From: Actinomycetes bacterium | Lineage (GTDB): Bacteria > Actinomycetota > Acidimicrobiia > Acidimicrobiales > Palsa-688 | Reading direction: 5' to 3' | Assembly: GCA_021809105.1 (NCBI GenBank) | Contig: JAKBAM010000002.1 | Location: 201,025-265,024, forward strand | DNA: 64,000 nt | Shown: positions 50,808-64,000 of the stretch, one piece after another | How positions within the stretch are numbered: position 1 is the first letter of the stretch | Layout of the letters: the number at the start of each line of letters is the position of its first letter | Position numbers and translations under genes: made by a program | Notes under the pieces: generated by a model | The model's database searches: none | Seen by the model: the letters and a program-made list of their open reading frames with translations, nothing else | What the model was told of the DNA's origin: nothing

Positions 50808-51698
50808 ATGACTGTCGTCCTCGCCCTCCTGTCCGCCGCCTTGTTCGGCTCTGGTGTAGGCCTCCAGCAGCGCCCGGCGCGTGACGTCCCCGACACCTAC
50901 GCGGCCAGGCCAGGTCTCCTCGCGAAGGTGGCCCTCCGACCGCTTTGGCTGGCTGGGATCGTCGCCGAGATCGCCGGCTTCGCCCTGCAGGTCGTCGCCC
51001 TCCGCGACGGATCCCTGGTGGTCGTGCAGCCCCTCATCACCACCTCACTCCTCTTCACCCTCGCCCTTTCTGGGATGTGGTCGGGTGATTCGATCACCGC
51101 CCGGGAGTGGGTCGGGGTGGTTGCGGTGATCGCCGGTCTCTCGGCGTTCATGGTGCTGGCGGCGCCGAGCGAGCACAGCAGCGGCGTCGCCAGCCAGTCC
51201 GACTGGATCATCCTCGGAGCCACGATGGCCGGCGGGGTCGGCGCCTTGATGGTCAGCGGCTTTCGCCTGGGTGGCCGCAGTCGAGCCGCGCTCTTCGGCC
51301 TGGCGGCCGGCCTTGGCGACGCCGTGATGGCTGTGCTGACCAAGGCGCTGGCCCACTCGCTCGGTGGCGGGGTGGGGCACGCGGTGCACACGTGGTCTCC
51401 CTACGCCCTGTGCGTAGCTGGCATCGGTTCGCTCTTGCTCAGCCAAACCGCCTATCAGACCGGGCGCCCCACCGTGTCACTGCCCCTGATCACCGTCACC
51501 GACCCGATCATCAGCTCGGTCATCGGGATCGCACTCTTCGGCGAGGTGCTACGCCTAGACGGCCTGAGGGCGCCGGCTGTCGTCCTCGCCGCGGCAGTGA
51601 TGATCGTCGGTCTCGTCGCCCTCACGAGATCCACTGCGGTGATCGAGCGCCACGCCGAGGCGACCGCCGTCGACGAGCCGGCGTCTGATCCGGCATGA
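50808..51698 (+). CDS. DMT-superfamily (EamA-like) membrane transporter
   Basis: About 10 TM helices with duplicated 4-5 TM halves. First gene of a four-gene overlapping operon. Confidence 0.6.
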   Translation: MTVVLALLSAALFGSGVGLQQRPARDVPDTYAARPGLLAKVALRPLWLAGIVAEIAGFALQVVALRDGSLVVVQPLITTSLLFTLALSGMWSGDSITAREWVGVVAVIAGLSAFMVLAAPSEHSSGVASQSDWIILGATMAGGVGALMVSGFRLGGRSRAALFGLAAGLGDAVMAVLTKALAHSLGGGVGHAVHTWSPYALCVAGIGSLLLSQTAYQTGRPTVSLPLITVTDPIISSVIGIALFGEVLRLDGLRAPAVVLAAAVMIVGLVALTRSTAVIERHAEATAVDEPASDPA

Positions 51699-52834
51699 GC
51701 GAGCCGAGGGACCTGCGCGTCCCGCCCGCGCGGGTGGTGTTCAGCGCCGAGGACCGGGTCCGGGTCCTGGACCTGATCGACCAGTCGCTGCGGACCGGCT
51801 CCCTCACCCTCGGTCCGGTAGGGGCCGCCTTCGAGGAGGCGTTTGCTGCCAGCCATCGAGCCCCCCACGCCATCGCTACCTCTTCGGGCACCAGCGCCCT
51901 CGAGATCGCGCTGCGCTCCCTCGGCGTCACCGGCGAAGTGATCGTGCCCGCCAATACCTTCTTCGCTACAGCCGCCGCCGTCATCCATGCAGGCGCCCGA
52001 CCCCGCTTCGCGGACGTCGAGCGTGCCACGTTGTCGCTGTCGGCCGCCACGATCGAGGCGGCGCTGACCCCTGCGAGCACCGCGGTGGTCGCGGTCCACA
52101 TCGGCGGCCTGATCAGCTCCGAGATGGACTCAATCGCCCAGCTGTGCGCGGCGAAAGGTTTGGTGCTGATCGAGGATGCCGCTCACGCCCACGGCTCGAC
52201 CCTCGGGGGGCGCCACGCCGGCTCGTGGGGAAGGGCTGCGACCTTCTCGTTCTATCCGACCAAGGTCGTGGCCGGTGCAGAGGGCGGCATGATCCTCACT
52301 GGCGAGGCTGAGCTGGCAGCGGAAGCTCGAATATTTCGTGACCAGGGAAAGGCCGGGTTCCATGGTGGTGCCCACGTGCGGCTGGGATCCGCTTGGCGGA
52401 TGAGCGAGGTTCACGCGGCGGTCGGCTTGGTGCACCACGGGCGGCTCGACGCAGCCGTCGCCACCCGCCGGCGTGTCGCGGCTTTTTACCACTCGGAGCT
52501 GGCCGATCTGGACGGCATTACCGGCCAGGCCGAGCCGTCCGGCGCCAGGAGCTGCCACTACAAGTACGTCGCCTTCCTGGAGGTGGGCGTGGACCGGGAG
52601 CGATTGCGGACCGTGCTCCGGGAAGATCACGGCGTGGCGCTGTCGGGCGAGGTGTATCCCCGCCCTCTCCATCACGAGCCGGTTTTCGCAGATGTCCTCC
52701 ACGGCGGCCTCCCCGAGACAGAAGACGTCTGCGCCCGCCACGTCTGCCTACCTGTGTACTCCGATATGACCGACGAAGAAGCTGGCATCGTCGTGTCAGC
52801 CCTTCGCTCGGCGCTCCCACGGGCCCGGCAATGA
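51695..52834 (+). CDS. DegT/DnrJ/EryC1/StrS-family PLP-dependent aminotransferase
   Basis: ATGA overlap with the DMT gene. Family fold with the conserved region GTSALEIALRSLG...VIVPANTFFAT. 379 aa. Confidence 0.85.
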   Translation: MSEPRDLRVPPARVVFSAEDRVRVLDLIDQSLRTGSLTLGPVGAAFEEAFAASHRAPHAIATSSGTSALEIALRSLGVTGEVIVPANTFFATAAAVIHAGARPRFADVERATLSLSAATIEAALTPASTAVVAVHIGGLISSEMDSIAQLCAAKGLVLIEDAAHAHGSTLGGRHAGSWGRAATFSFYPTKVVAGAEGGMILTGEAELAAEARIFRDQGKAGFHGGAHVRLGSAWRMSEVHAAVGLVHHGRLDAAVATRRRVAAFYHSELADLDGITGQAEPSGARSCHYKYVAFLEVGVDRERLRTVLREDHGVALSGEVYPRPLHHEPVFADVLHGGLPETEDVCARHVCLPVYSDMTDEEAGIVVSALRSALPRARQ

Positions 52835-53571
52835 CCGGGAGCGCATCCCGTCGCCTCGGCGCTGCGAGTGCGGGTTTCGCCGGCATGTTCGCCGCCATCC
52901 AGTGGGTGCCGAGCGTCGTCAGCCTCGGTCAATGGCTGCCTGTTCGGTCGCTCCCATCGGGATGGTGCAGTTGGCGTGGGCGCCCTGGCACCACAGTGGC
53001 GCTCACCTTCGACGACGGTCCCGACCCCGCGACCACCCCCCGCATCCTCGACGCCCTCGATCGGCTGGGCCTGGTAGCCACCTTCTTCTGCACCGGCGCG
53101 CACGTCGAACGCCACCCTGGCTTGGCCTGCGAGCTACGAGACCGGGGGCACGCAGTCGGATCTCACGGCTATGCCCACGAGCACCACCTCTTACATGGCC
53201 CCGGCTGGATTGCCCGGGATCTCGACGCGGCCCTGAGGGTGTCGGCAGCGGCGGGGCTCAGCCCCCGGTGGTACCGGCCTCCTTACGGGCAGTGCAGCGG
53301 CCCGACCCTCTTCGCGGCGCGCCGGAGGGGCCTGAGTACGGTCCTGTGGTCGGCATGGGGACGGGAGTGGGCTGCACCCGACGCCGGAGCGGTGGCCGCT
53401 CGCGTCGGTGCGGCGCTGGCGCCCGGAGCGGTCGTGCTACTCCATGACAGCGACGCCTTCTCGCCACCCGGGTCGGTCGAGCGCACCCTGGTTGCGCTCG
53501 AGTCTGTTGCCGCTGACCTGGCCGACCGCGGTCTGCGCGCCGCCACCCTCGACGAGGTAATGGCGGAGTGA
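52831..53571 (+). CDS. polysaccharide deacetylase (NodB-homology, CE4) family protein
   Basis: ATGA overlap. NodB motifs TFDDGP and HGYAHEH. Hydrophobic N-terminus. Confidence 0.8.
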   Translation: MTGSASRRLGAASAGFAGMFAAIQWVPSVVSLGQWLPVRSLPSGWCSWRGRPGTTVALTFDDGPDPATTPRILDALDRLGLVATFFCTGAHVERHPGLACELRDRGHAVGSHGYAHEHHLLHGPGWIARDLDAALRVSAAAGLSPRWYRPPYGQCSGPTLFAARRRGLSTVLWSAWGREWAAPDAGAVAARVGAALAPGAVVLLHDSDAFSPPGSVERTLVALESVAADLADRGLRAATLDEVMAE

Positions 53572-54716
53572 GACTGCGGCGGGTGATGTTCCTCTCCGGC
53601 TCTTTGGGCAAGGGGCACGATGTGGTCGCCGAGGCCTGCGCCGCAGCCCTGGCGCCCTACAGCGTGGAGTCGACGGTGCTCGATTCGATGCGGCTCCTCG
53701 GTGGCGGCGCGGCCGCTGCCGGCGACTGGGCCTTCAAGCGGCTGCTGTCGGTGACCGCCATCTACGACGCCTTCCATTTCTCCCAGCTGCGTGACGACGG
53801 CCGCCTCGGCCGAGCGGCCGACCGGGCGGCTGTGGACAAGATGCACCGGGCTTTGAGCCGGGAGATCGACCGCTTCGGACCGCAGCTGGTCGTCCCGGTG
53901 TTCGCCACCGGTGCGGGGGCCGCGATCCGGCTCAAGCGGGAAGGTGGCACTTTCTCCACCATGGTCGTCATGACCGACTCCTTTGCTCATCGGATGTGGG
54001 TTCACGAGGGCACCGACGCCTTCCTCGTGACTTCTGCCGCTGCGGCCGAATCCGTGCGCCGGTACTGGCCGGAAGCGCCTGTGTCGGTCGTCGCGGCCCC
54101 GGTGCGGCCCGAGTTCTACGAGGCTCCCCCCCGGGCCGAAGCCCGTTCGCGCCTCGGGGTGCCCCCCGATGTCAGCTGCGTGCTGTTGATGTCGGGCGCG
54201 TGGGGGCTCGGGCCGCTGGACGAGGCGTCTGAAGCGCTGTCAGCCGACGGTACCTGGGTGCTGGCGGTGGCGGGGACGAACACCACCATGGAGCGCTCCC
54301 TCCGCCGCCTTGCGGACCGCCAGCCGAACATCGTGGCCTTCGGCTACACCGACCGGGTGCCTGAGCTCATGTCGGCGTGCGACGTGGTAGTCACCAGCTC
54401 CGGCGACACCTGCAGCGAAGCCCGTACTCTCGGTCGGGGGATCATCCTCATCGACGTCGTGCCGGGTCACGGACGTGAGAACTTGATGCATGAGCTGGAG
54501 TTGGGTGGCGCCACCGCCTGCCTCCCGAACGCGGGGTCGATCGCCAGGGCGGTGCGCAGTTTCCTCGGTGACCCGCAGAGGTCGAAGGTGGCGCCGGCGG
54601 CCGATCCCAGGGCCGCCGAGAAGCAGTTCCTGGATGCCGTGAGGGCGATAGGGTTCGAGCTACCGGAGAACCAGCTGTCAGCCAACCGGATGGGTGGTTC
54701 ACGAAAGACGGTCTGA
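53568..54716 (+). CDS. MGDG-synthase-family (GT28, UgtP-like) glycosyltransferase
   Basis: ATGA overlap. N-terminal LSGSLGKGHDVVAEA matches the MGDG_synth domain. GT28 C-terminal domain. Confidence 0.8.
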   Translation: MRLRRVMFLSGSLGKGHDVVAEACAAALAPYSVESTVLDSMRLLGGGAAAAGDWAFKRLLSVTAIYDAFHFSQLRDDGRLGRAADRAAVDKMHRALSREIDRFGPQLVVPVFATGAGAAIRLKREGGTFSTMVVMTDSFAHRMWVHEGTDAFLVTSAAAAESVRRYWPEAPVSVVAAPVRPEFYEAPPRAEARSRLGVPPDVSCVLLMSGAWGLGPLDEASEALSADGTWVLAVAGTNTTMERSLRRLADRQPNIVAFGYTDRVPELMSACDVVVTSSGDTCSEARTLGRGIILIDVVPGHGRENLMHELELGGATACLPNAGSIARAVRSFLGDPQRSKVAPAADPRAAEKQFLDAVRAIGFELPENQLSANRMGGSRKTV

Positions 54717-55487
54717 GAGCATCCGGTAGGCGTTGGGGAGCACCCGCCGGATCCTCACGGGCAGGCCGAGCCATCCGGGCACGACCCGGTCGGGGCAGCC
54801 GTGCGCAAGGCAGTAGAGGATGGCTTCAGCCACCTCAGAGGCCGGTATGGGGCTCGGCCAGGCCCGCGCATAGGGTTGGTTGCGCCGTCGGAAGAAGTCG
54901 GTGGCGACGACACCGGGGTTGACGACCGACACCTTGACGCCGCGGGGGCGCAGCTCGACTCGCAAGGCTTCGCCCAGCGCCGCCAGGCCCGCCTTCGACG
55001 CGGAGTAAGCGGCCTCGCCGCCCAAGGGGAGCAGCCCGGTGATGGATCCCACCAGAACGATCTGGCCTCCGCCCCCGGCGATCAGGTGGGGGAGAGCAGA
55101 GCGTAGCAGGTGGGCGCCGGCGCGTAGGTTGATGTCGAGCACGGCGTCGAGCTCGCCGGCGGTCATGGTCTGGAAGGGGCCGGCCCAGCCGGCGCCGGCG
55201 TTGGAGATGACGATGTCGAGCCGGCCGAGTGCGGCGACGGCCTGGGCCACTGCCTCCGAAGGACCGGTGGATGTCGCAAGATCGGCCTGAATCGTCACCG
55301 GCCCGGTGAAGTCACGGGCTACGTCTACGAGGGCGGTGAGGTCTCGGCCCACTACAGCGACTCGGATCCCTTCGGCATCGAGCAGCCTGGCCGTCGCCGC
55401 GCCGATCCCGCTCGACGCCCCGGTGACCAAGGCCGTGCGCCCCGGCGGGAGGCGTGCGCGGCGGCGGCCGGGATCAGCTCGGCTCAC
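54699..55487 (-). CDS. classical short-chain dehydrogenase/reductase (SDR), translationally coupled to hpnH
   Basis: TGASSGIG cofactor motif and YSASK catalytic motif. GTG start forms a GTGA overlap with the hpnH stop. Confidence 0.7.
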   Translation of the reverse strand: MSRADPGRRRARLPPGRTALVTGASSGIGAATARLLDAEGIRVAVVGRDLTALVDVARDFTGPVTIQADLATSTGPSEAVAQAVAALGRLDIVISNAGAGWAGPFQTMTAGELDAVLDINLRAGAHLLRSALPHLIAGGGGQIVLVGSITGLLPLGGEAAYSASKAGLAALGEALRVELRPRGVKVSVVNPGVVATDFFRRRNQPYARAWPSPIPASEVAEAILYCLAHGCPDRVVPGWLGLPVRIRRVLPNAYRMLSDRLS

Positions 55488-56488
55488 GACCCTACAGCGG
55501 CTCGCAATGATTGCTTGAGGGACTTCGTCGTCGCCAGCACGGCGCTGGGCTCGTAGCCGCAGTGGGCCATGCAGTTGGCGCAGCGTGGGTCCTTGCCCCG
55601 CCCGTAGCGGTCCCAATCTGTGGTCGCGATCAGCTCCTCGTAGGTCTCGGTGTAGCCATCGGACATCAGGTAGCAGGGCTTCTGCCAGCCGAGCACCGAA
55701 TAGCTCGGGATGCCCCACGGGGTGCAATCGAAGTCGACCTTTCCCTCGAGGAAATCGAGGAAGAGAGGGCTGTGGTTCAGCCGCCATCTCTTGCGCCGGC
55801 CGTCGGCGAAGGCGTCGGCGAAGAGCTTCGTCGAGGACTTAGTGCTGAGGAAGTTGACCTGGTCAGGCGCCTTCTCGTAGGCATAGCCGGGAGAGATCAT
55901 CATCTGGTCGACCTGGAGCTCGTCGTTCAGGTAGTCCAACACCTCCCGCACCGTTCTCACCGAGTCGGTGTTGAAGAACGTCGTGTTGGTGTTGACCGTG
56001 AACCCCCGCTCCTTGGCCTTGCGGATGGCGGCGACTGCCTTGTCGAAGGTGCCGTCCCTGCTCACCGACTCGTCGTGACGATCCCGGAGGCCGTCGATGT
56101 GGACCACCCAGCTGAAGCGGGGGTTCGGCTCGAACTTTTCCAGCTTCCGCTCGAGTAGCAAGGCGTTGGTGCAGAGGTAGACGAATTTCTTGCGGGCGAG
56201 GAGCTCGGCGACGATCTTGTCGATCTCCGGGTGCAGCAGCGGCTCCCCGCCGGCGATGGACACCATCGGGGCCCGGCTCTCCTCGATTGCGCCCACCGCC
56301 TGCTCGACGGTGAGGCGCCTGCGCAGGATGTCGGTGGGATACTGGATCTTGCCGCATCCGTTGCACGACAAGTTGCAGGCGAAGAGGGGCTCGAGCTCGA
56401 CGATCAGGGGGAACTTGTCGCGCCCGGCCAGCTTTTGCTTGGCCATGTAGGTGCCGACCTGGACACTTTGACGGAGGGGTACACCCAT
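55484..56488 (-). CDS. hpnH: adenosylhopane synthase, hopanoid-associated radical SAM protein HpnH
   Basis: CNLSCNGC radical-SAM cysteine triad. N-terminus ...FPLIVELEPLFACNLSCNGCGKIQYP closely matches the HpnH family. Confidence 0.9.
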   Translation of the reverse strand: MGVPLRQSVQVGTYMAKQKLAGRDKFPLIVELEPLFACNLSCNGCGKIQYPTDILRRRLTVEQAVGAIEESRAPMVSIAGGEPLLHPEIDKIVAELLARKKFVYLCTNALLLERKLEKFEPNPRFSWVVHIDGLRDRHDESVSRDGTFDKAVAAIRKAKERGFTVNTNTTFFNTDSVRTVREVLDYLNDELQVDQMMISPGYAYEKAPDQVNFLSTKSSTKLFADAFADGRRKRWRLNHSPLFLDFLEGKVDFDCTPWGIPSYSVLGWQKPCYLMSDGYTETYEELIATTDWDRYGRGKDPRCANCMAHCGYEPSAVLATTKSLKQSLRAAVGS

Positions 56489-56491
56489 GAT

Positions 56492-58030
56492 CTATCGGAC
56501 CTCCGGAGGTAGGGAGAAGGAGACATTTTCGGTGTGGACCGTTCGCTCGGAGACCTTCACCGGTCCCAGGCCTCGGAGCGCGTCGACCACCCGCGCCACG
56601 ACGGACTCCGGCGTAGACGCTGCTGCGGTGAGGCCGATATTGCCCACACCTGTCAACCATGCCAGGTCGAGGGCTTCCGGGTCGTCGACCAGCTCCGCCG
56701 CGGCACCTGCACTCCGGGCGGCTTCGACCAGCCTGGCTGCGTTGGACGAGTTGGACGAGCCGACGACCAGCACCAGGTCGGTGTCGGCCGCGACGGCCCG
56801 CACGGCATCCTGGCGGTTGTGGGTGGCGTAGCAGATGTCCCCCGCGTGGGGACCGATCAGGGTCGGGTAGCGGCGGCGCAGCGCCTCCACCACCGAGGAG
56901 GTCTCGTCGGGCGAGAGGGTGGTCTGAGTGACGTAGGCGACGCGGGCCCCGTCGACGGTTTCCAGGGCGTCCACCTGTTCGGGAGTGGAGACCAGGTGCA
57001 TTGCCGGAGCCTCGCCCATGGATCCCTCCACCTCGTCGTGGCCGGCGTGGCCGACGAGCACCACTTCGTAGCCCCGCTCGTTGAAGCGGCGGATCTCGGT
57101 GTGGACCTTGGCGACCAGGGGGCAGGTGGCATCGACGACTGTTATACGCCGGGCGGCGGCATCCGCCCTCACCGACGGCGCGACTCCGTGGGCGGAGAAC
57201 ACGACCGTGGCCCCGTCGGGGACCTCTTCGAGCTCCTGGACGAACACCGCCCCCCGACCTTCGAGCTCGGTGACCACGTGGGAGTTGTGGACGATCTGGC
57301 GCCGCACGTAGACCGGTGCACCATATCGGCCGATGGCACGCTCGACGGTCTCGATAGCTCGCGATACGCCGGCACAGAACGAACGTGGGCCGGCCATCAA
57401 CACGCGGCGTGGCTCTGTCGCTGCGGCCCACGCAACCAGGACCGGGGCGGCAGCCCTGAGCGCTCGCAGGGCGGCGATGCCTCCGCTGACGGTGCTCAAC
57501 GAGATGAGGTCCCGACCGGGGGTGTCGGCGATAGCACGCACCACGGCAACGGGTCGCTCCCAAGGATGGCGCAGGATCGCCGCCGACTCCATATCGACTG
57601 CGGCTGCCCCGAGAGCGGCCAACGCGTCCCGTGCGGGCCGACCCCGGACCAAGCTGTCGGTGCTGGCGATGGTCCCGGTTCGTGCTTGAAGGCCCGCCCG
57701 GCGCAGGGCGGAGGCCAACAGGGTCGCAGACGGCAGGTCGGTCACGAGCTGCCCATGGTCGTCCACCACTCGATCGGCGACTACGAGGTCGCCTGGGTGC
57801 AGGTCGTTCACCAACGCACCAGCCACGCCCGCCACGACCATGGCCTTCCCGGGCAAGCTCGCCATGCGGGCGGCGGCCGCGGCCGCGCGGGCGGGACCTG
57901 CGCCGGTGCGCTCCACTCGTAGGCCCGACGCGCCTCGGCCCACCGCTCGCGCCTCGACGCGCAGCGGCACCAGTGCCAGCAGCGCGCCGCTGGTCGCAGG
58001 TGCCGGGCGTGGCTCCGCTCGACCTTGCAT
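56492..58030 (-). CDS. fusion protein: HpnG-like nucleoside phosphorylase (PNP/MTAN family) N-terminal domain plus IspH (4-hydroxy-3-methylbut-2-enyl diphosphate reductase) C-terminal domain
   Basis: N-terminal PNP_UDP_1 motifs AAVDMESAAIL and VAVVRAIADTPG. The C-terminus from RVLMAGPRSFCAGVSRAIE to YVTQTTLS is IspH/LytB. No stop codon separates the two domains in the 512-codon ORF. Confidence 0.8.
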   Translation of the reverse strand: MQGRAEPRPAPATSGALLALVPLRVEARAVGRGASGLRVERTGAGPARAAAAAARMASLPGKAMVVAGVAGALVNDLHPGDLVVADRVVDDHGQLVTDLPSATLLASALRRAGLQARTGTIASTDSLVRGRPARDALAALGAAAVDMESAAILRHPWERPVAVVRAIADTPGRDLISLSTVSGGIAALRALRAAAPVLVAWAAATEPRRVLMAGPRSFCAGVSRAIETVERAIGRYGAPVYVRRQIVHNSHVVTELEGRGAVFVQELEEVPDGATVVFSAHGVAPSVRADAAARRITVVDATCPLVAKVHTEIRRFNERGYEVVLVGHAGHDEVEGSMGEAPAMHLVSTPEQVDALETVDGARVAYVTQTTLSPDETSSVVEALRRRYPTLIGPHAGDICYATHNRQDAVRAVAADTDLVLVVGSSNSSNAARLVEAARSAGAAAELVDDPEALDLAWLTGVGNIGLTAAASTPESVVARVVDALRGLGPVKVSERTVHTENVSFSLPPEVR

Positions 58031-60001
58031 TCAGCGATCTCCAGATGCGTAGCGCCCGAGCGCCGTCAGCGGGAAGACCAGTCGGTAGAGGTGGTAGTTG
58101 ATGTTGAAGTCCCACGGGAAGCCGGTGCCCGTGTACTGAGGCTCGTCCCATGTCCCGTCGGGCCGCTGGGTCCCGACGAGGAACGCCACACCCGCCCTGG
58201 TCGCGGCGCTCTCGCGCTCTCCGGCGGCCAGCAGGGCGAGGAGGGCCCAGGCCGTCTGTGACGGTGTCGAATCGCCTCGTCCCCTCCACTGCTCGTCGAC
58301 GTAGGAGCGCATGTCCTCACCCCAGCCCCCGTCGGGGTTCTGGTGTGCCTCCAGCCACGCGACCGCCCGGCGCACCCGCTCGTCGCCTGGCGCCACCCCG
58401 GCGTCGATGAGTGCCGGGATGGCCGCGCCGGTGCCGTAGACGTAGTTGCTGCCCCAGCGACCGAACCAGGAGCCGTCATCCTCCTGCTGGCTGCCGAGCC
58501 AGTCGACGGCGCGAGCTACCGTCTCGTGCGGCACGCCAGGCTCACCCGCGAGCATCTCGATGACATGGGCGGTGACGTCGGCTGACGGGGGGTCGGTCAC
58601 ACGTCCGAAGTCGCAAAACGGCAGGGCCGCACACAGCTCGCTGTCGTTGTCGACGTCGAAGGCGCCCCACCCCCCGTCCCTGCACTGCATGCCGAGGGTC
58701 CAGGCCACCCCCCGCTCTACTGCCGCGCAGCGGGGACCCGTGTCACCTGCGGCCACCCCTGCCCGGCGTAACGCCATGATCACCTCGGCGGTGTCGTCGA
58801 TGTCGGGATAGAGATCGTTGGCGAACTCGAACGCCCAGCCGCCCGGCTCGAGCTCGGGGCGGCGCACCGCCCAGTCGCCCTTGATGCGAACCTCCTCTGC
58901 CACCAGCCAACCGGCGGCCGCCTGCATGGCTGGATCGTCGGGGGCGACCCCTGCATCGGCCAAGGCCACCACCGCCAGGGCGGTGTCCCACACCGGGGAC
59001 TGGCAGGCCTCGACGTGGCGCCCACGGTGGTCATCGAGCACGAAGCCGTCGATGCCGGCGAGCGCTGCCTTCATCACCGGGTGCTCAATGGAGTAGCCCT
59101 GGAGGTGCAAGGCGATCACGGAGTAGACGATCGGCGGCTGGATACCCCCCCAGCAGCCGTCGGCCTCCTGCCGCGAGAGGATCCAGCGTTCTGCCCGGGA
59201 GAGGCAGGCGCGGCGCACCGCGGCCCGGGGCAGGACCCAGCGAGGTAGGCGCTCGTAGCGGTGAAGTAGCCGGTCGAGCGCCTGGAAGGCGAGGGCGGTA
59301 GGGGTGCGGGAAGCTGGCTTGGACGCGGCCGGCGGCGATGCCAGCTCGTCTAGGGCGAAGGGCAGCGGGCGAGCGGGACGGTGGGCCATCACGACGCTCA
59401 GCGCGACGATCGTCTGGCGGGCCCAGCACCCGAAGTCGTAGATGTTGAGCGGTGCCCACTTCGGCAGCAACATGATCTCGGCCGGAAGTACCGGGAGCTC
59501 CTCCCACGGCCAAGCGCCGACCATCGCCATCCAGATCCGGGTGAAGACCCGGGTTCGGGCGAGACCGCCGTGGGATCGGATCCACGTCGCGGCTGCCACC
59601 ATGTGCGCTTCCCGGGCGTCATGGCCCGAGAGGCGCAGCGCCACGTAGGCCTCGACCGTGGTGGAGAGATCTCCTGGGCCGGCGAAGTATGTCGCCCACG
59701 CCCCGTCCTGACGTTGGTGGGAGGCAATCCAGCGCCCGGCGGCGGCCCTCGTGGCATCGTCGAGGATCCCGAGGAAGTGGCGCAACAGGAGGTCCTCGGC
59801 ATCCATGGTGACGTTGGTCTCGAGCTCCCCCTTCCACCATCCACCGGGGTGTTGGAGCTGCAGGAGGTGCTCGCAGGCGCGGTCGCGCGCATCGACTGCT
59901 CCCGCCACATCCTCTGCCCCGACGACCACGAGGCGGTCGGCTTCGTGGGGTGCTGGCGATGTGGGTTCTTCGTCGACGGGCCGCTCGGCGAGCGAGGTCA
60001 C
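58031..60001 (-). CDS. shc: squalene-hopene cyclase
   Basis: Catalytic DIDDTA (DXDDTA) motif and several QW motifs (DGGWG, DGSWFGRWG). GTG start forms a GTGA overlap with the FPP synthase stop. Stop abuts the next gene (TGAATG). Confidence 0.9.
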   Translation of the reverse strand: MTSLAERPVDEEPTSPAPHEADRLVVVGAEDVAGAVDARDRACEHLLQLQHPGGWWKGELETNVTMDAEDLLLRHFLGILDDATRAAAGRWIASHQRQDGAWATYFAGPGDLSTTVEAYVALRLSGHDAREAHMVAAATWIRSHGGLARTRVFTRIWMAMVGAWPWEELPVLPAEIMLLPKWAPLNIYDFGCWARQTIVALSVVMAHRPARPLPFALDELASPPAASKPASRTPTALAFQALDRLLHRYERLPRWVLPRAAVRRACLSRAERWILSRQEADGCWGGIQPPIVYSVIALHLQGYSIEHPVMKAALAGIDGFVLDDHRGRHVEACQSPVWDTALAVVALADAGVAPDDPAMQAAAGWLVAEEVRIKGDWAVRRPELEPGGWAFEFANDLYPDIDDTAEVIMALRRAGVAAGDTGPRCAAVERGVAWTLGMQCRDGGWGAFDVDNDSELCAALPFCDFGRVTDPPSADVTAHVIEMLAGEPGVPHETVARAVDWLGSQQEDDGSWFGRWGSNYVYGTGAAIPALIDAGVAPGDERVRRAVAWLEAHQNPDGGWGEDMRSYVDEQWRGRGDSTPSQTAWALLALLAAGERESAATRAGVAFLVGTQRPDGTWDEPQYTGTGFPWDFNINYHLYRLVFPLTALGRYASGDR

Positions 60002-61041
60002 GATTCCCGATCCACCACGAAGGCAGCGAGGTCGGCGAGCGTACGGTGGGGCACAGGGGAGAGACGCACCCGCTCCAGGGCTCCGAGGGCGCCGTCTAGG
60101 TGCGACTTGGCCCGCGTCCGGGCCCATTCCCTGCCCCCGCACGCTTCGACCAGGTAGGCGGCACGAGTGACTTGCGCCTCATCGAGAACTGGTGCGCCCG
60201 GGGTTCCGACGACCAGCGCTCTCAGCTCGTCGGACTCGTCGCCCCCCGCCGCCAGTGCGGCCACGACCGGCAGCGACTTCTTGCGGCGCCGGAGATCGTT
60301 GCCCGCCGGCTTTCCGGTGCGCGCCGGGTTGCCCCAGATCCCGAGCAGGTCGTCGACGGCCTGGAAGGCGAGCCCCAGGTGTCCCCCGTAGTCGCGGAGG
60401 GCACCGATGGTGGCGGGGGGTGCGCCGGCCAGGACTGCCCCGATCGATGCCGCTGCGCCGAGGAGAGCGCCGGTTTTGGCCGCGCACATGGCGACACAAT
60501 CGTCGACCGACACGGTGGATTGCCTCTCGAACGCGATGTCGTCGGCCTGTCCGGCGATCATCGCGGCAGTGGCGTCCGCCAGCAGCTCAGCCGCCGCGGA
60601 GCCGTGCGCCTCGCACTCGAGGAGCACCTGCTGGGCCGCCACTGCCAGCGCGTCGCCGGCGATTATCGCCGGCCCGATCCCGAAGACGGACCACACCGTG
60701 GGGCGGTGGTGGCGCTCGGTGTCACCGTCGATGATGTCGTCGTGGATCAGGGAGTAGTTGTGGACCAGCTCAACCGCCACCCCACCGGGCACGCCGATCT
60801 CGGGCTCGGCCCATGCCGCCGCGGCGGAGAGGAGGGCCAGGGCGGGGCGCACCAGCTTGCCGCCCGGGGCGTCGAGCGGGCGGCCATCAGTATCGGTCCA
60901 GCCGAGGTGGTAGGAGGCCATCCTGGCTATGTCGGGGTTCATGCGCCTCACGGCGTGTTCCATCGCAGGTTGGATCGCGCTCCGGGTCCGAGCCAGGGCA
61001 TCGGGCAGGCTGCCGCCGTTGGAGGAAGGAAGTTGGGTCAT
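59998..61041 (-). CDS. polyprenyl (farnesyl) diphosphate synthase
   Basis: First DDxxD motif DDIIDGD and second motif FQAVDDLLG. Confidence 0.85.
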   Translation of the reverse strand: MTQLPSSNGGSLPDALARTRSAIQPAMEHAVRRMNPDIARMASYHLGWTDTDGRPLDAPGGKLVRPALALLSAAAAWAEPEIGVPGGVAVELVHNYSLIHDDIIDGDTERHHRPTVWSVFGIGPAIIAGDALAVAAQQVLLECEAHGSAAAELLADATAAMIAGQADDIAFERQSTVSVDDCVAMCAAKTGALLGAAASIGAVLAGAPPATIGALRDYGGHLGLAFQAVDDLLGIWGNPARTGKPAGNDLRRRKKSLPVVAALAAGGDESDELRALVVGTPGAPVLDEAQVTRAAYLVEACGGREWARTRAKSHLDGALGALERVRLSPVPHRTLADLAAFVVDRES

Positions 61042-61063
61042 GCGGTCACTCGCTCGCATTCGG

Positions 61064-62470
61064 TCAGGTCACCTCCTGGGGTAGGTGCCGGGTGACGCCG
61101 GCGCCTACGAGCGCAGCGCGGGCGGCTCGCCGCCCGCTGCGTAAGGCGCCTTCCATCGTCGCCGGCCATCCGGTGTCGGTCCACGCTCCGGCCAGGTACA
61201 GCCCCGGCAAACGGGTCAAGGCGCTCGGCCTCAGGGCGCCGCTGCCGGGGACGGCCCTGAAGGTGGCGTGTCGCTCCTTCGTCACGACGGCATCGAGGAC
61301 CGTAGCGTGGCGCGACGCAGGCAAGATCCGGTGGATCTCTTCGGCCATCGTGGTGGCGAGGGTCTCGGGTCTTGTGCCGAGGTGGTCGTCGGCCGCAGAC
61401 AGGGACAAGGCAAGGTGCTGTGGCTCTCCCGGACCGCCCGGCGCCAGCCCTGAAGAGCTCGTGCGGTCGAACACCCACTGCACCGGAGAGTCCAGCGCCG
61501 CCAGCAGCGGCAGATCGGTGACACGCCGGTCGTAGAGGAGGTGCACGTCGACGATCGGAGACAGGCCCAGCTGACCGATCCGGCTCAAACCAGGCAGCGC
61601 CCAGTCAGGCACCAGCCCAGGCAATTCGGTGTGAGGGAGCGCGACGATGACGGAGTCGGCGTGTAGATCCTTGCCTCCGGCGACGACCCGAAGCGCCGTG
61701 GGTGCATCGGCCCCGCCGTCCACCGCCGTGACGCGAGTCTCGGTCCGCACCTCGACGCGTGCCTTGGCCAGGGCCGACAGCGAACGCTCACCGTGGAGCT
61801 GCGCCAACGGTATCCGGGACCACCCGATGTCTGCGGCCCGCCGATCGGTCAGCAGGCCGGTCTGGAACACTTTTGCGCCCATCGCCAGGGAGGCTTCGCT
61901 GGCTGGAAGGTTGATCGTCGCCACTGTGATCAGGTCCCACAGCGCCGCGATGGTCGACGGCCGCTGGCCGTGGCGGGCCAGCCATGCACCGAAGGTCTCC
62001 CGGTCGAGGCGTGGGTCGTCCAAGTCGATGTGGCGCAGCGGGAGGACGGCGCGCCCGAGGCGCAGGCGGTCGGCGACGGACAGGTGGCGGTACTGGAGGA
62101 GCGCCCGAGCGAGGTGAAGCGGCGCAGGGACGTCGTCGCGGCGAAGGCGCGCGCTGAGCGGGGGCCGACCTCGGCTCGCCGCCCTTATGACAGTGATGTC
62201 GAGGTGGTCCTGGATCTCGACGTCGCCGGCCGAACCGATCCGGTCCAGGAACTCGAGATATGCGTGGCAGCAGCGGAGGAACACGTGCTGGCCGTTGTCG
62301 AGCCAGCGGCCCTGGTGCTCGAAGGACCAGGTGAGGCCACCGAGGCGCCGGCGCCGCTCGAGCAGGGTCACCCGAGCACCCGCGTCTGCGCAGTCGAGCG
62401 CCGCTCCCAACCCGGCGAGCCCTGCGCCCACCACCACGACATGGGGGCGGTCGCGGGCGGCGGGTGTCAT
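61064..62470 (-). CDS. hpnE: hydroxysqualene dehydroxylase (squalene-associated FAD-dependent desaturase HpnE)
   Basis: FAD-binding VVVVGAGLAGLGAALDCADAG. Amine-oxidase/phytoene-desaturase fold. ATG forms an ATGA overlap with the hpnD stop. Confidence 0.85.
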   Translation of the reverse strand: MTPAARDRPHVVVVGAGLAGLGAALDCADAGARVTLLERRRRLGGLTWSFEHQGRWLDNGQHVFLRCCHAYLEFLDRIGSAGDVEIQDHLDITVIRAASRGRPPLSARLRRDDVPAPLHLARALLQYRHLSVADRLRLGRAVLPLRHIDLDDPRLDRETFGAWLARHGQRPSTIAALWDLITVATINLPASEASLAMGAKVFQTGLLTDRRAADIGWSRIPLAQLHGERSLSALAKARVEVRTETRVTAVDGGADAPTALRVVAGGKDLHADSVIVALPHTELPGLVPDWALPGLSRIGQLGLSPIVDVHLLYDRRVTDLPLLAALDSPVQWVFDRTSSSGLAPGGPGEPQHLALSLSAADDHLGTRPETLATTMAEEIHRILPASRHATVLDAVVTKERHATFRAVPGSGALRPSALTRLPGLYLAGAWTDTGWPATMEGALRSGRRAARAALVGAGVTRHLPQEVT

Positions 62471-63339
62471 GCCCGGCCCACCGTAAGGGCTCGCGCCGCA
62501 ACCGCAGCCTTCTCCCAACCCGGCAACGAAAGCCGGCCTCGCGTGACCGCGAGCGGGTCGCGCTGGATCCGGTCGAGCAATCGCCGGTAGATGCCAGCCA
62601 TGGCGGCGGTGCATGCCCGGGAGCGCCGGTCCAGTCTCGGCAGGAGTGCCAGGCCCCGGTCGTACCACTCAGCCGCACGAGATGCCTCGAAGCTCACCAG
62701 GGCGGCGAGAGCGTCATCGCCCCCGCGCACCTCGGAGTCAACGTCGAAGCGGGCCAGGTCATCGGCGGGCAGGTAGACCCGCCCCATGGTTTCGCGATCC
62801 TCGACGATGTCACGCAGGATATTGGTCAGCTGGAGGGCGACCCCCAGGGCGTCGGCCAGGGGATCCGCTCGGGCCCGGTCCGGTGTGCGGTATACCGCCA
62901 GCGACAGCCGACCGACCGTGCCTGCCACCCGCAGGCAGTAGCCGATCAGGTCCTCGATCGTGTTGTAGGTGACCCCCTCCACGTCCATCTCGCAACCCGC
63001 GATGAGCTCGTCGAGCGCCGACAAGGGGAGGTCATAGCGCCGGGCGGTGTCTCCCAGCGCGATCAACACGGGGTCCCCTCCGGCCGCCGCCGGATCGTCG
63101 GCAACGGCCATGACTGCGTGGCGGGTCGCGGCCAGGGCGGCGAGCTTGTCGTCGGATCCGGCCCCGCCATCGCCGATGTCGTCAATCCTCCTGGCTATCG
63201 CATACAGGGCGCTCATAGCGGCTCGCTCCGGTGGTCGCAGCAGCCTTATCCCGTAAGAGAAGTTGCGGGCTTCGCTCCTCGTGATCTCCTCGCAGCGTCG
63301 GTAGGCGTCCTCCAGATCCGTGGCGGCGGGCAAGCTCAC
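62467..63339 (-). CDS. hpnD: presqualene diphosphate synthase (squalene/phytoene synthase family)
   Basis: SQS/PSY family motifs YGIRLL and ARRIDDIGD. GTG start forms a GTGA overlap with the hpnC stop; the exact start is uncertain. Confidence 0.75.
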   Translation of the reverse strand: MSLPAATDLEDAYRRCEEITRSEARNFSYGIRLLRPPERAAMSALYAIARRIDDIGDGGAGSDDKLAALAATRHAVMAVADDPAAAGGDPVLIALGDTARRYDLPLSALDELIAGCEMDVEGVTYNTIEDLIGYCLRVAGTVGRLSLAVYRTPDRARADPLADALGVALQLTNILRDIVEDRETMGRVYLPADDLARFDVDSEVRGGDDALAALVSFEASRAAEWYDRGLALLPRLDRRSRACTAAMAGIYRRLLDRIQRDPLAVTRGRLSLPGWEKAAVAARALTVGRA

Positions 63340-64000
63340 CTCCGTGCTCCGAGGAGACCGATGGTGTGGGAGGCGACCCGAGAGGCTCGAGGCTGTGGTG
63401 TTCGTGTCAGCGGGTCGAAGCCCCCCGCAGCGAGAGCGTCCAGCGCGGCGTGACCACCGGCGACGAATCCAGCGACGGCGAGGCGCGATCGTCCCCCGAG
63501 GCTGTGCACGAGTGGTGCTCCCGACCGCAGCAGGCGCCGGGCCCGCCATGCCTCGAAAGCCATGAGCCCGCGCAACGCCGTCCCCGCCGGCGCGGCTGAG
63601 CGACTCAGGTCGGCACTCGACACCCCGAACCGATCGAGGTCGTCCAGCGGCAGGTAGATCCGGCCGGCGGCGTGGTCCTCAGCCACATCCTGCCAGTGCT
63701 CGGCCAGCTGCAGGGCGGTACAGACCATATCGGACCAGGCCACCCGCTCCGGCGTGGCCGCTCCGAAGGCGGCCAGCACCAGCCTGCCGATCGGGGCCGC
63801 GGACAGGGCGCAGTAGCCGACGAGGTCGTCGAAGCTCTGGTAGCGGGTGACGGCCTGATCCTGCCGGTTGGCTGCCACTAGGTCGCGCATCGGCGCCGGA
63901 TCGGCACCGAGCCGGAGGAGGCAGGCAGCCGCCCGCGACACCAGCGGATCGAGCCCGTCCTGGCTGGGATCTTTCAAAGCCGCGCTGAGCTGCTCGTCGA
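63336..64000 (-). CDS. hpnC: hydroxysqualene synthase (squalene/phytoene synthase family), 5'-partial; continues beyond the window end
   Basis: SQS/PSY C-terminal region YCALSAAPIGRLVL and YLPLDDL. The reading frame is open to nt 64000. Confidence 0.8.
   Translation of the reverse strand, partial: DEQLSAALKDPSQDGLDPLVSRAAACLLRLGADPAPMRDLVAANRQDQAVTRYQSFDDLVGYCALSAAPIGRLVLAAFGAATPERVAWSDMVCTALQLAEHWQDVAEDHAAGRIYLPLDDLDRFGVSSADLSRSAAPAGTALRGLMAFEAWRARRLLRSGAPLVHSLGGRSRLAVAGFVAGGHAALDALAAGGFDPLTRTPQPRASRVASHTIGLLGARR

Follow-up and report, generated by a model that had tools for sequence, protein, structure and literature searches.

In Rhodomicrobium udaipurense, ispH, hpnH, hpnG and shc are adjacent but separate genes, and this proteobacterial type of hopanoid cluster brings together the same gene set as the locus described here, with ispH as the only gene of the MEP pathway recruited to it (PMC4263297). 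It differs from the present locus in keeping hpnG and ispH separate and in its gene order. Proteobacterial HpnG also defines the family TIGR03468, to which the corresponding actinobacterial domain has only a weak match (83 bits).

The Streptomyces-type cluster, made of shc, a stand-alone hpnG-like gene and hpnH, has the same order upstream of hpnH as the window, by which we mean the whole 64,000-nucleotide stretch of DNA that was analysed. The Streptomyces HpnG-like protein is homologous to the N-terminal domain of the window protein (38-46% identity), and no IspH domain was found within 6 kb in 29 of 29 sampled Streptomyces loci. Deletion of this stand-alone gene reportedly leads to accumulation of adenosylhopane, a result said to be that of Liu and co-workers in 2014. 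More generally, reviews state that adenosylhopane accumulates in hpnG knockouts; the phosphorylated form of the HpnG product has never been observed according to one review, and HpnG may cleave its substrate by hydrolysis or by phosphorolysis.

Other fusions of MEP-pathway enzymes with a partner have been described (IspDF, IspH-RPS1, IspH-UbiA), of which IspDF joins non-consecutive steps. In the RPS1 and UbiA fusions IspH is N-terminal, whereas the window protein has another partner and carries IspH at its C-terminus. The profile for bifunctional IspH/ribosomal protein S1 (NF000907) is matched by the window protein over its IspH part only (profile positions 3-285 of 671; 212 bits versus 624), and no S1 repeats are present.

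The architecture itself is already known: a UDP/PNP phosphorylase-IspH fusion was presented for Frankia sp. QA3, EUN1f and EAN1pec by authors who held that it might have arisen at random (Rao et al., 2015, Chem Sci, PMC4746011, Fig. 2d). That fusion and the window protein are alike in having an N-terminal PNP_UDP_1 and a C-terminal IspH domain, and a Frankia locus in our sample (L068) carries the N-terminal and full C-terminal profiles in one frame and belongs to the same family. However, the earlier report concerned one genus only and did not tie the partner to HpnG or to a hopanoid cluster, whereas the window protein comes from an Acidimicrobiia-like metagenomic contig. The Frankia fusion came to light through the literature on IspH structure, while a search of the hopanoid, HpnG and IspH fusion literature returned no description of an HpnG-IspH fusion. 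The first-pass annotation of the window had held that ispH and hpnG are separate genes in all hopanoid loci known to date; this is true of hopanoid papers such as that on Rhodomicrobium (PMC4263297) but not of the Frankia fusion (PMC4746011), and the novelty that it implied was overstated.

A fused gene within a hopanoid cluster

The fusion gene is part of a full hopanoid cluster, where it is flanked by shc and hpnH in the order shc, fusion, hpnH. The genes and signals of this part of the window are as follows.

54699..55487, minus strand: short-chain dehydrogenase (SDR; PF00106, 162 bits; gene call), overlapping the hpnH stop by 4 nt
55484..56488, minus strand: hpnH, radical-SAM adenosylhopane synthase (TIGR03470, 521.1 bits versus 225.05)
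56492..58030, minus strand: hpnG-ispH fusion gene, 512 codons plus TAG stop (ORF list, sequence, Pfam PNP_UDP_1 and LYTB)
58039..58042, minus strand: GGAG ribosome-binding motif in the upstream sequence, 8 nt 5' of the fusion ATG and within the 3' end of shc
58031..60001, minus strand: shc, squalene-hopene cyclase (TIGR01507, 745.5 bits versus 431.1), whose TGA stop abuts the fusion ATG
59998..61059, minus strand: polyprenyl diphosphate synthase (PF00348, 173 bits)
61064..62470, minus strand: hpnE-type desaturase of the FAD amine-oxidase family (PF01593, 172 bits; gene call)
62467..63333, minus strand: squalene/phytoene-synthase-family gene of hpnD or hpnC type (PF00494, 230 bits; gene call)
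63336..64000, minus strand: second squalene/phytoene-synthase-family gene (PF00494, 143.5 bits), continuing beyond the window end and 296 aa long in the parent contig

The first-pass annotation, which gave no strand for the open reading frame at 56492-58030, had proposed that an HpnG-type domain and IspH are fused in one 512-aa polypeptide with no stop codon between them. Both points hold: the frame, on the minus strand, runs from an ATG to the TAG at 56492-56494, is free of in-frame stops over its 512 codons, and matches Pfam and NCBIfam profiles for the two domains. An independent gene call (ENA ERZ27233573) yields an identical 512-aa product. The GC content of the window is 68.7%, at which long open reading frames arise by chance, and a spurious one of 808 aa indeed overlaps the fusion gene in another frame; the reading frame of the fusion is proven by its matches to the PF02401 and PF01048 profiles. 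GC3 stays between 0.63 and 0.97 along the whole frame, and the start codon is supported by the GGAG motif 8 nt upstream. The motifs that had been quoted are also in place, with AAVDMESAAIL at residues 142-152, VAVVRAIADTPG at residues 161-172 and MAGPRSFCAGV starting at Met212. These data confirm that one gene of the hopanoid cluster encodes an HpnG-like domain joined end to end with IspH.

The surrounding genes are tightly packed. The gene call for shc is 656 aa long, although the open reading frame itself reaches 60142, and hpnH begins 3 nt past the fusion stop and is preceded by GGAGG. No second ispH was found in the window, nor within 6-10 kb in 86 loci. We considered whether the SDR, glycosyltransferase, deacetylase, aminotransferase and transporter genes that flank the cluster form a conserved accessory module. 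This was ruled out, since they lack general conservation among the loci of the sample, with the SDR present in 2 of 20 fused and 4 of 46 unfused loci and the glycosyltransferase in 1 of 20.

The two domains and their junction

The product of the fusion gene can be divided as follows.

57410..58030, minus strand: HpnG-like nucleosidase/phosphorylase domain, residues 1-207, of which residues 1-14 are predicted to be disordered
57374..57430, minus strand: fusion junction, W201 to C219 (19 residues), leading from the HpnG C-terminal helix into the first IspH beta-strand
56495..57409, minus strand: complete IspH/LytB domain (EC 1.17.7.4 family), residues 208-512 (PF02401, TIGR00216, NF002190)
57395..57397, minus strand: codon of Met212, the 'internal Met' of the first-pass annotation, at the start of MAGPRSFCAGV

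The assignment of PNP/MTAN-family motifs of HpnG type to the N-terminal 215 or so residues is borne out for residues 1-207, with a match to PF01048 (PNP_UDP_1) over residues 39-172 (61.9 bits; cut-off 25.1). Among nucleosidase-type NCBIfam models, TIGR03468 (HpnG) gives the best match (83.4 bits, as opposed to 51 for MTAN), although this is under its curated cut-off of 187.1. Scores are similarly low (67-103 bits; 67-71 for Streptomyces) for the stand-alone proteins that occupy this slot in Streptomyces, Streptosporangium, Gandjariella, Ca. Poriferisocius and Micromonospora, and the shortfall is therefore a trait of the actinobacterial clade. Stand-alone relatives of 190-230 aa align with residues 15-205 of the fusion. 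The domain has a PNP/MTAN-superfamily fold, its model superposing on MTAN and futalosine hydrolase structures with a TM of 0.65-0.70 (Foldseek), and the nucleosidase-type residues are conserved in fused homologues (E26 in 137/141, E148 in 139/141, R165 and D169 both in 141/141) as well as in unfused relatives. We take these four residues to be the equivalents of MTAN E12, E174, R193 and D197, a numbering that draws on PDB entry titles.

The remainder of the protein had been described as a complete IspH/LytB, and the domain is indeed complete: PF02401 (LYTB) matches residues 210-485 over profile positions 1-266 of 267 (298.3 bits; cut-off 24.5; E 6e-89). The window protein also exceeds the cut-offs of TIGR00216 (295.8 versus 187.85) and of the subfamily model NF002190 (394.5 versus 389), but does not reach the equivalog-level models NF002189 (415.5; cut-off 444) and NF002188 (406.6; cut-off 420), just under which a Plantactinospora fusion also falls (428.1 and 407.1, respectively). 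A profile of the fused family, built from an alignment headed by the window sequence, matches E. coli IspH over its full length with 442 bits. In the AF2 model, the IspH half is predicted to form the trefoil of three alpha/beta lobes and superposes on E. coli IspH structures with a TM of 0.90-0.91 over about 308 columns, at 49-50% identity (Foldseek). The cluster-ligand cysteines C219, C303 and C400 (C12, C96 and C197 in E. coli) are present and are kept in 141/141 fused homologues. The same is true of the substrate-binding and proton-relay positions, whose roles, like those of the cluster ligands, have been described (PMC9745026): H248, H281, H331, E333, T370, T371, S428, S429, N430 and S472 are all found in the window protein, and in E. 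coli numbering H41, H74, H124, E126, T167, T168, S225, S226 and N227 are kept in 141/141 homologues and S269 in 140/141.

The two domains adjoin without a linker (residues 207/208), R208 aligning with Met1 of E. coli IspH. The AF2 model (pLDDT 88.4, pTM 0.83) places a helix at residues 178-203 followed by a strand at 208-212, and the segment from W201 to C219 is exactly 19 residues long in 141 of 141 fused proteins. Unfused HpnG-like proteins stop 5-25 residues past the W201 column. W201 was also considered as a fusion-specific interface residue, which is ruled out by its presence in 114 of 141 unfused relatives.

Distribution, proposed function and alternatives

Fused homologues are not confined to this contig. 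The best 120 database matches are all proteins of about 450-545 aa that align over 85-100% of the length of the window protein, 119 of them recorded with both Pfam domains, which answers the doubt raised in the first-pass annotation that no fused homologues might exist. The at least 141 fused homologues that we compared come from Acidimicrobiia, MAGs of Solirubrobacterales/Conexibacteraceae, Frankia, Actinomadura and Micromonosporaceae. Among isolates, the fusion occurs in Frankia, Actinomadura, Plantactinospora, Dactylosporangium and Micromonospora, and the complete genomes of Plantactinospora sp. KBS50 (CP022961.1) and Dactylosporangium sp. AC04546 (CP139171.1) carry it. In a sample, not a census, of at least 80 genome loci collected by a scan with a 6-sequence N-domain alignment, an HpnG homologue lies directly upstream of hpnH in 80/80, 22 of the 80 are fused, and none has a separate ispH beside hpnG. 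By this comparison, many Actinomycetota, from at least three actinobacterial classes, have kept the fusion. Moreover, the two halves co-vary (Mantel r 0.77, a value reached by 0 of 2000 permutations), which indicates that HpnG and IspH co-evolve and are inherited as a unit.

The gene probably encodes a bifunctional polypeptide that arose when two adjacent genes of the hopanoid cluster were joined end to end, and that retains two independent canonical active sites. The N-terminal half would be the actinobacterial HpnG, stripping adenine from adenosylhopane, the product of the HpnH encoded downstream, and so forming ribosylhopane or its phosphate. At the C-terminus, a catalytically intact [4Fe-4S] IspH would reduce HMBPP to IPP and DMAPP, from which the squalene cyclised by Shc is made. 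Like those of IspDF, the two sites would each work on their own, at steps that are not consecutive, and since their reactions are many steps apart there is no rationale for channelling; the probable gain would be that a cluster-linked IspH is always expressed together with the side-chain enzymes. What we infer are the activities of the two enzymes, the independence of their sites, the selective benefit and translation as one chain. That the fusion physically links side-chain processing with isoprenoid precursor supply, as had been suggested, follows from the architecture. The fusion would be old, common to Acidimicrobiia, Thermoleophilia-type MAGs (Solirubrobacterales, Conexibacteraceae) and Actinomycetes, passed on as a unit and repeatedly lost or decayed. 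For the MEP pathway, a fusion set aside in 2015 as perhaps a chance event in a single genus would then be an old and conserved Rosetta-stone link of IspH to hopanoid side-chain synthesis.

Several other explanations have to be weighed against this one. The window derives from a metagenome assembly, and two MAG loci (L013 and L029) carry frameshifted versions of the gene, as might be expected if a lost stop or a frameshift had merged two genes artificially; however, a stop-free frame with an identical 19-residue junction in 141 independent sequences, complete isolate genomes included, and a uniform GC3 across the frame make such a sequencing or assembly artefact hardly conceivable. Translation might also, or mainly, begin within the gene close to the junction, at Met212, at Val210 or slightly upstream of W201, and so yield free IspH, giving the cell separate enzymes in effect. 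In-frame GTG, TTG and ATG codons do occur at residues 210-212, the first-pass annotation had pointed to an internal Met at the IspH boundary, and NCBI annotation picks a start of this kind in several Micromonosporaceae genomes. Met212 is indeed present, but of the 141 fused homologues 128 have Leu at this position and only 6 have Met, and it is therefore not a conserved start; nor does any GGAG/GAGG/AGGA-type motif lie within 25 nt 5' of its codon in the window, or any Shine-Dalgarno-like motif before residues 210-212, in contrast to the GGAGG of hpnH. A scan of the junction for such 4-mers does find them in 16 of 22 fused loci, but they arise from the R-E-V codons themselves and have no spacing to a start, while in the truncated calls an intact HpnG domain in the same frame goes unannotated, which looks like model-guided start picking. 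We thus regard a functional internal start as improbable.

The remaining alternatives concern what the halves do. The closest solved structures of the N-terminal domain are MTANs and its score is below the TIGR03468 cut-off, which would suit a general MTA/SAH or 5'-deoxyadenosine nucleosidase clearing radical-SAM by-products of HpnH rather than an adenosylhopane-specific HpnG. Yet HpnG is still its best nucleosidase-type match, it fills the same shc-X-hpnH slot as the stand-alone Streptomyces gene, and adenosylhopane accumulates in hpnG knockouts and, reportedly, on deletion of the Streptomyces gene, so that a general nucleosidase seems quite improbable. We give very little credence to the idea that the IspH half now serves hopanoid side-chain chemistry, for instance the reduction of ribosylhopane to bacteriohopanetetrol, instead of HMBPP reduction. 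IspH is fused to HpnG and adjoins hpnH, and according to reviews no enzyme has been assigned to the step after HpnG; against this stand the residues binding the diphosphate and hydroxyl of HMBPP and ligating the cluster, kept in 140-141 of 141 homologues, and the close sequence and structural likeness to E. coli IspH. Moreover, some Micromonospora have deleted the catalytic lobes and kept HpnG, indicating that any such role is dispensable there.

Decayed descendants and annotation pitfalls

In the Micromonosporaceae, forms of the gene can be arranged in a decay series, from the full fusion through HpnG with the last IspH lobe to HpnG alone, which offers a natural experiment on fused domains becoming interdependent. 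Some Micromonospora, M. zhanjiangensis (P0285) among them, have decayed descendants with HpnG and only the last IspH lobe: lobes 1 and 2 and all three cluster cysteines are gone, while the first beta-strand and the third lobe are kept. The Foldseek top 50 for a model of such a remnant are MTAN/PNP matches only, with no IspH, and for this reason the IspH origin of the tail rests on sequence profiles.

A dependence of HpnG on the third lobe would explain why the remnants keep just these parts, as a dead 'pseudo-IspH' appendage. We put forward, as a doubtful possibility, that the fusion serves as a functional unit and not simply for convenient co-expression, that actinobacterial HpnG depends structurally on the third (C-terminal) IspH lobe, and that the intact IspH is a hopanoid-dedicated copy; a structural partnership of this lobe with HpnG is a suggestion drawn from the lobe's retention in the remnants and from AF2 confidence. 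If so, one complex would tie IPP/DMAPP supply to side-chain maturation.

Hundreds of such fused proteins are present in public databases, named only "IspH". Owing to this name, to the score below cut-off and to an N-terminal half that is sometimes left uncalled, HpnG will go unnoticed in many Actinomycetota, both in surveys based on TIGR03468/IPR017831 and in some NCBI annotations. Inferences on the makers of extended C35 bacteriohopanepolyols, which serve as geological biomarkers, could be biased as a result with respect to soil Acidimicrobiia, Solirubrobacterales, Frankia and Micromonosporaceae.

The uncalled N-terminal halves are found in several Micromonosporaceae genomes, where the NCBI annotation calls an internal start (M-x-E-W-A-A-A...) and leaves HpnG unannotated. 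When the IspH half of the Plantactinospora fusion was used as query, 'IspH-only' proteins of 306-323 aa were retrieved that resemble second copies of ispH; every one checked is a fusion gene with an internal start called. For example, P0416 corresponds to residues 198-514 of P0293, and P0392 to residues 177-493 of P0394. In two loci (L085 and L086), the shc-X-hpnH slot is annotated with IspH alone next to a gap of about 580 nt that has no gene call, and the gap in L085 encodes an intact in-frame HpnG domain.

Reading frame and genomic context of the fusion gene

The fusion gene is embedded in a complete hopanoid cluster, all on the minus strand, whose order is two squalene/phytoene-synthase genes, hpnE-type, polyprenyl synthase, shc, fusion, hpnH and short-chain dehydrogenase (SDR).

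Features of the cluster and its surroundings
minus strand: two squalene/phytoene-synthase-family genes
minus strand: hpnE-type desaturase gene
minus strand: polyprenyl synthase gene
minus strand: shc (TIGR01507, 745 bits)
58030 down to 56492, minus strand: hpnG-ispH fusion ORF (ATG start, TAG stop, 512 codons, no internal stops)
55863-58289, minus strand, other frame: 808-aa ORF overlapping the fusion
56534-57922, plus strand: 462-aa ORF overlapping the fusion on the opposite strand
minus strand: hpnH (TIGR03470, 521 bits)
54699-55487, minus strand: short-chain dehydrogenase, overlapping the hpnH stop by 4 nt
50808-54716, plus strand, divergent from the cluster: EamA-type transporter, DegT-family aminotransferase, polysaccharide deacetylase and MGDG-synthase-like glycosyltransferase

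The first-pass annotation had read here one HpnG-IspH polypeptide with no stop between the domains. This is borne out: the ORF is real, and Pfam matches above cut-off cover both halves, PNP_UDP_1 at residues 39-172 (61.9 bits) and the whole LYTB profile at residues 210-485 (298 bits). The two N-half motifs that it quoted lie at residues 142-152 and 161-172. Long ORFs are cheap at the window GC content of 68.7%, and it is therefore profile evidence that establishes the fusion frame. Both the spurious 808-aa ORF and the 462-aa ORF have low-complexity Arg/Pro/Gly-rich translations, as is typical when high-GC DNA gives rise to spurious ORFs, and the strong Pfam matches identify the 56492-58030 frame as the coding one. 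GC3 is high and uniform along the fusion ORF, and the same 512-aa product was called independently in ENA on the parent contig of 266 kb.

The ATG of the fusion directly adjoins the shc stop codon, with a GGAG 8 nt upstream, and its own stop lies 3 nt from the hpnH start. Speculatively, the divergent flanking module and the SDR may be candidate genes for hopanoid head-group synthesis or ribosylhopane reduction, not orthologues of HpnI/J/K. Similar glycosyltransferase, deacetylase and SDR genes also flank four Micromonosporaceae clusters (L081, L083, L084 and L086), but they are not conserved across the wider locus sample.

Two complete domains and their junction

The C-terminal half is an IspH of canonical type. 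A profile built from the fused family, with the window protein as first sequence, matches E. coli IspH over its full length (442 bits), placing E. coli Met1 opposite R208. The AF2 model of the fusion (pLDDT 88.4, pTM 0.83) can be laid over E. coli IspH with a TM-score of 0.90-0.91 and 49-50% identity. All three cluster cysteines and every substrate-binding or proton-relay residue (roles as in PMC9745026) are present. Equivalents of C12, H41, H74, C96, H124, E126, T167, T168, C197, S225, S226 and N227 are kept in all 141 fused sequences, and that of S269 in 140; since the residues that bind the diphosphate are completely conserved, a new substrate for this half is unlikely. A Foldseek match, PDB entry 9ql0 (released April 2026), is E. 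coli IspH 'crystallized in the presence of adenosine hemisulfate'. The coincidence is curious, since the partner of IspH in the fusion has an adenosyl compound as its substrate.

The N-terminal half is a full-length PNP/MTAN-superfamily domain, and its top nucleosidase-type NCBIfam match is HpnG (TIGR03468), although its score of 83 bits falls short of the cut-off of 187. The sub-cut-off score is a trait of the whole actinobacterial clade: scores of 67-103 bits are also obtained for stand-alone proteins encoded between shc and hpnH in Streptomyces, Streptosporangium, Gandjariella, Ca. Poriferisocius and Micromonospora. Among the best 150 relatives of this half in a library of 1.84 billion proteins, 94 are stand-alone (most ~190-230 aa) and align over residues 15-205, so that the N-half represents a complete unit. 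R165 and D169 are present in 141/141 fused sequences, E148 in 139 and E26 in 137.

HpnG-like domains also occur in other combinations. The 820-aa protein P0269 consists of an amine oxidase of HpnE type, an HpnG-like domain and part of an IspH, while HpnE and HpnG-like domains share one stop-free frame in a Solirubrobacterales MAG (L077:3553-6618), as do Shc and an HpnG-like domain in an Acidimicrobiales MAG (L070:3685-6708). Each of the two MAG arrangements was seen only once and may be an assembly error.

Since unfused relatives end 5-25 residues past the W201 column and IspH begins at R208, the junction directly connects the natural C-terminus of one protein with the natural N-terminus of the other, without any linker. 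In the AF2 model, helix 178-203 continues into strand 208-212, and W201 to C219 spans 19 residues in 141/141 fused sequences. The internal Met noted at the IspH boundary is present (Met212), but the position is Leu in 128/141 sequences and Met in 6, and no SD-like motif precedes residues 210-212 in the window, in contrast to the GGAGG of hpnH. An internal start is not a conserved feature, although one may still be used.

Most likely, one chain carries two independent canonical activities: the HpnG half would remove adenine from adenosylhopane, the product of HpnH, and the IspH half would supply IPP and DMAPP. Adenosylhopane accumulates in hpnG knockouts (reviews, including PMC4263297). The benefit of the fusion is probably enforced co-expression, as in IspDF, which likewise joins non-consecutive steps.

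Distribution, inheritance and earlier records

Fused homologues, which the first-pass annotation had proposed to seek by BLASTP, are abundant: the best 120 matches of the full-length protein all have ~450-545 residues, and both Pfam domains are recorded for 119. The fusion is real and conserved. A genome scan with the N-domain alignment (one genome per species) yielded at least 80 loci. Among the 80 listed, the HpnG-like gene lies directly upstream of hpnH in every case, runs on in the same frame through a complete IspH in 22, and never has a separate ispH beside it. Fused forms occur in MAGs of Acidimicrobiaceae/Acidimicrobiales, Solirubrobacterales/Conexibacteraceae and one Mycobacteriales, in the isolates Actinomadura physcomitrii and Frankia sp., and also in Plantactinospora, Dactylosporangium, Micromonospora, Rhizomonospora, Asanoa, Modestobacter, Actinopolymorpha and Prauserella; for Plantactinospora sp. 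KBS50 and Dactylosporangium sp. AC04546 the loci themselves were examined. All 29 Streptomyces loci are unfused, as are Streptosporangium, Ca. Poriferisocius and some Solirubrobacterales. Two further MAG loci carry a frameshifted fusion (L013:5968-7522 and L029:5650-7526, the latter with several other cluster genes likewise fragmented), through either pseudogenisation or long-read indel errors.

Distance matrices of the two halves are correlated (Mantel r 0.77, reached by 0/2000 permutations) and their trees yield the same clades, indicating that the halves travelled together. The N-domain tree mixes fused and unfused forms, with Actinomadura (fused) beside Streptosporangium (unfused) and Frankia (fused) beside Gandjariella (unfused). 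Such a pattern fits an old fusion that was lost repeatedly; transfer of the fusion between lineages is possible as well, the trees being neighbour-joining ones. Actinobacterial-type hpnG(-ispH)-hpnH modules were also seen in non-actinobacterial bins: L032 ('Spirochaetales'), L036 ('delta proteobacterium') and L076 (CAZZVR010000155.1, 'Burkholderia sp. PAMC 26561'). The last has 71% GC and both halves group with Solirubrobacterales fusions, and it is probably mis-binned rather than horizontally transferred.

In the hopanoid literature examined, hpnG and ispH appear as separate genes, as in the Rhodomicrobium cluster (PMC4263297), or the fusion goes without mention. However, a survey of IspH fusions lists "UDP/PNP phosphorylase" + IspH in Frankia sp. 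QA3, EUN1f and EAN1pec (Rao et al., 2015; PMC4746011), and the architecture is therefore already on record; the first-pass interpretation is supported in substance, but it put the novelty too high. The Rosetta-stone fusion is real and conserved, and had been noted before but under-interpreted. Our analysis adds to it that the partner is HpnG, that the hopanoid context is invariant, that the family extends over at least three classes and that the junction is rigid.

Remnants and internally called starts in Micromonosporaceae

In Micromonosporaceae isolates, full fusion, remnant and stand-alone forms are found side by side. Around 20 cluster representatives, 255-360 aa long, have retained the HpnG domain together with the junction and the first beta-strand of IspH (W-A-A-x-x-x-R-x-V-L-L-A-x-P). 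They lack window residues ~217-405, all three cysteines included, and resume at ~D418 through to the F-x-LPKEVR terminus (the last ~100 IspH residues). The retained IspH part corresponds exactly to the third lobe (E. coli residues 1-13 plus ~195 to the end).

Remnants lacking lobes 1-2 (the P-numbered database proteins are about 290-337 aa)
P0135, P0154, P0157, P0167, P0183, P0206, P0223: remnant proteins
P0233, P0240, P0266, P0281-P0283, P0285: further remnant proteins
L081:8001-8960: remnant gene of Micromonospora zhanjiangensis, between shc and hpnH

The remnants are decayed descendants of the fusion. They occur in M. zhanjiangensis and Micromonospora sp. NPDC050397; in other Micromonospora, either the complete fusion or a stand-alone HpnG of 220-230 aa is found. 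Their lack of lobes 1-2 and of the cysteines shows that some lineages can do without IspH catalysis at this locus, implying another ispH elsewhere in those genomes. AF2 predicts two packed domains with a confident fold (pLDDT 88.8, pTM 0.87), and the retention of the third lobe suggests a structural reason.

'IspH-only' proteins of 306-323 aa in Dactylosporangium, Planosporangium and Micromonospora were considered as a second ispH, and those compared turned out to be the fusion gene called from an internal start: P0416 matches residues 198-514 of P0293 (99.7% identity). P0392 and P0394 form a second pair with inconsistent start annotation. Some NCBI records call the fusion as a 317-318-aa IspH, leaving a ~580-nt 'intergenic' gap.

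Example of a fusion locus called from an internal start
L086:6414-7954: Dactylosporangium sp. CA-139114

In Micromonospora sp. NPDC004704 (L085:6423-7957), the uncalled ~580-nt gap encodes an intact in-frame HpnG domain, so that HpnG would seem absent from genomes annotated in this way.
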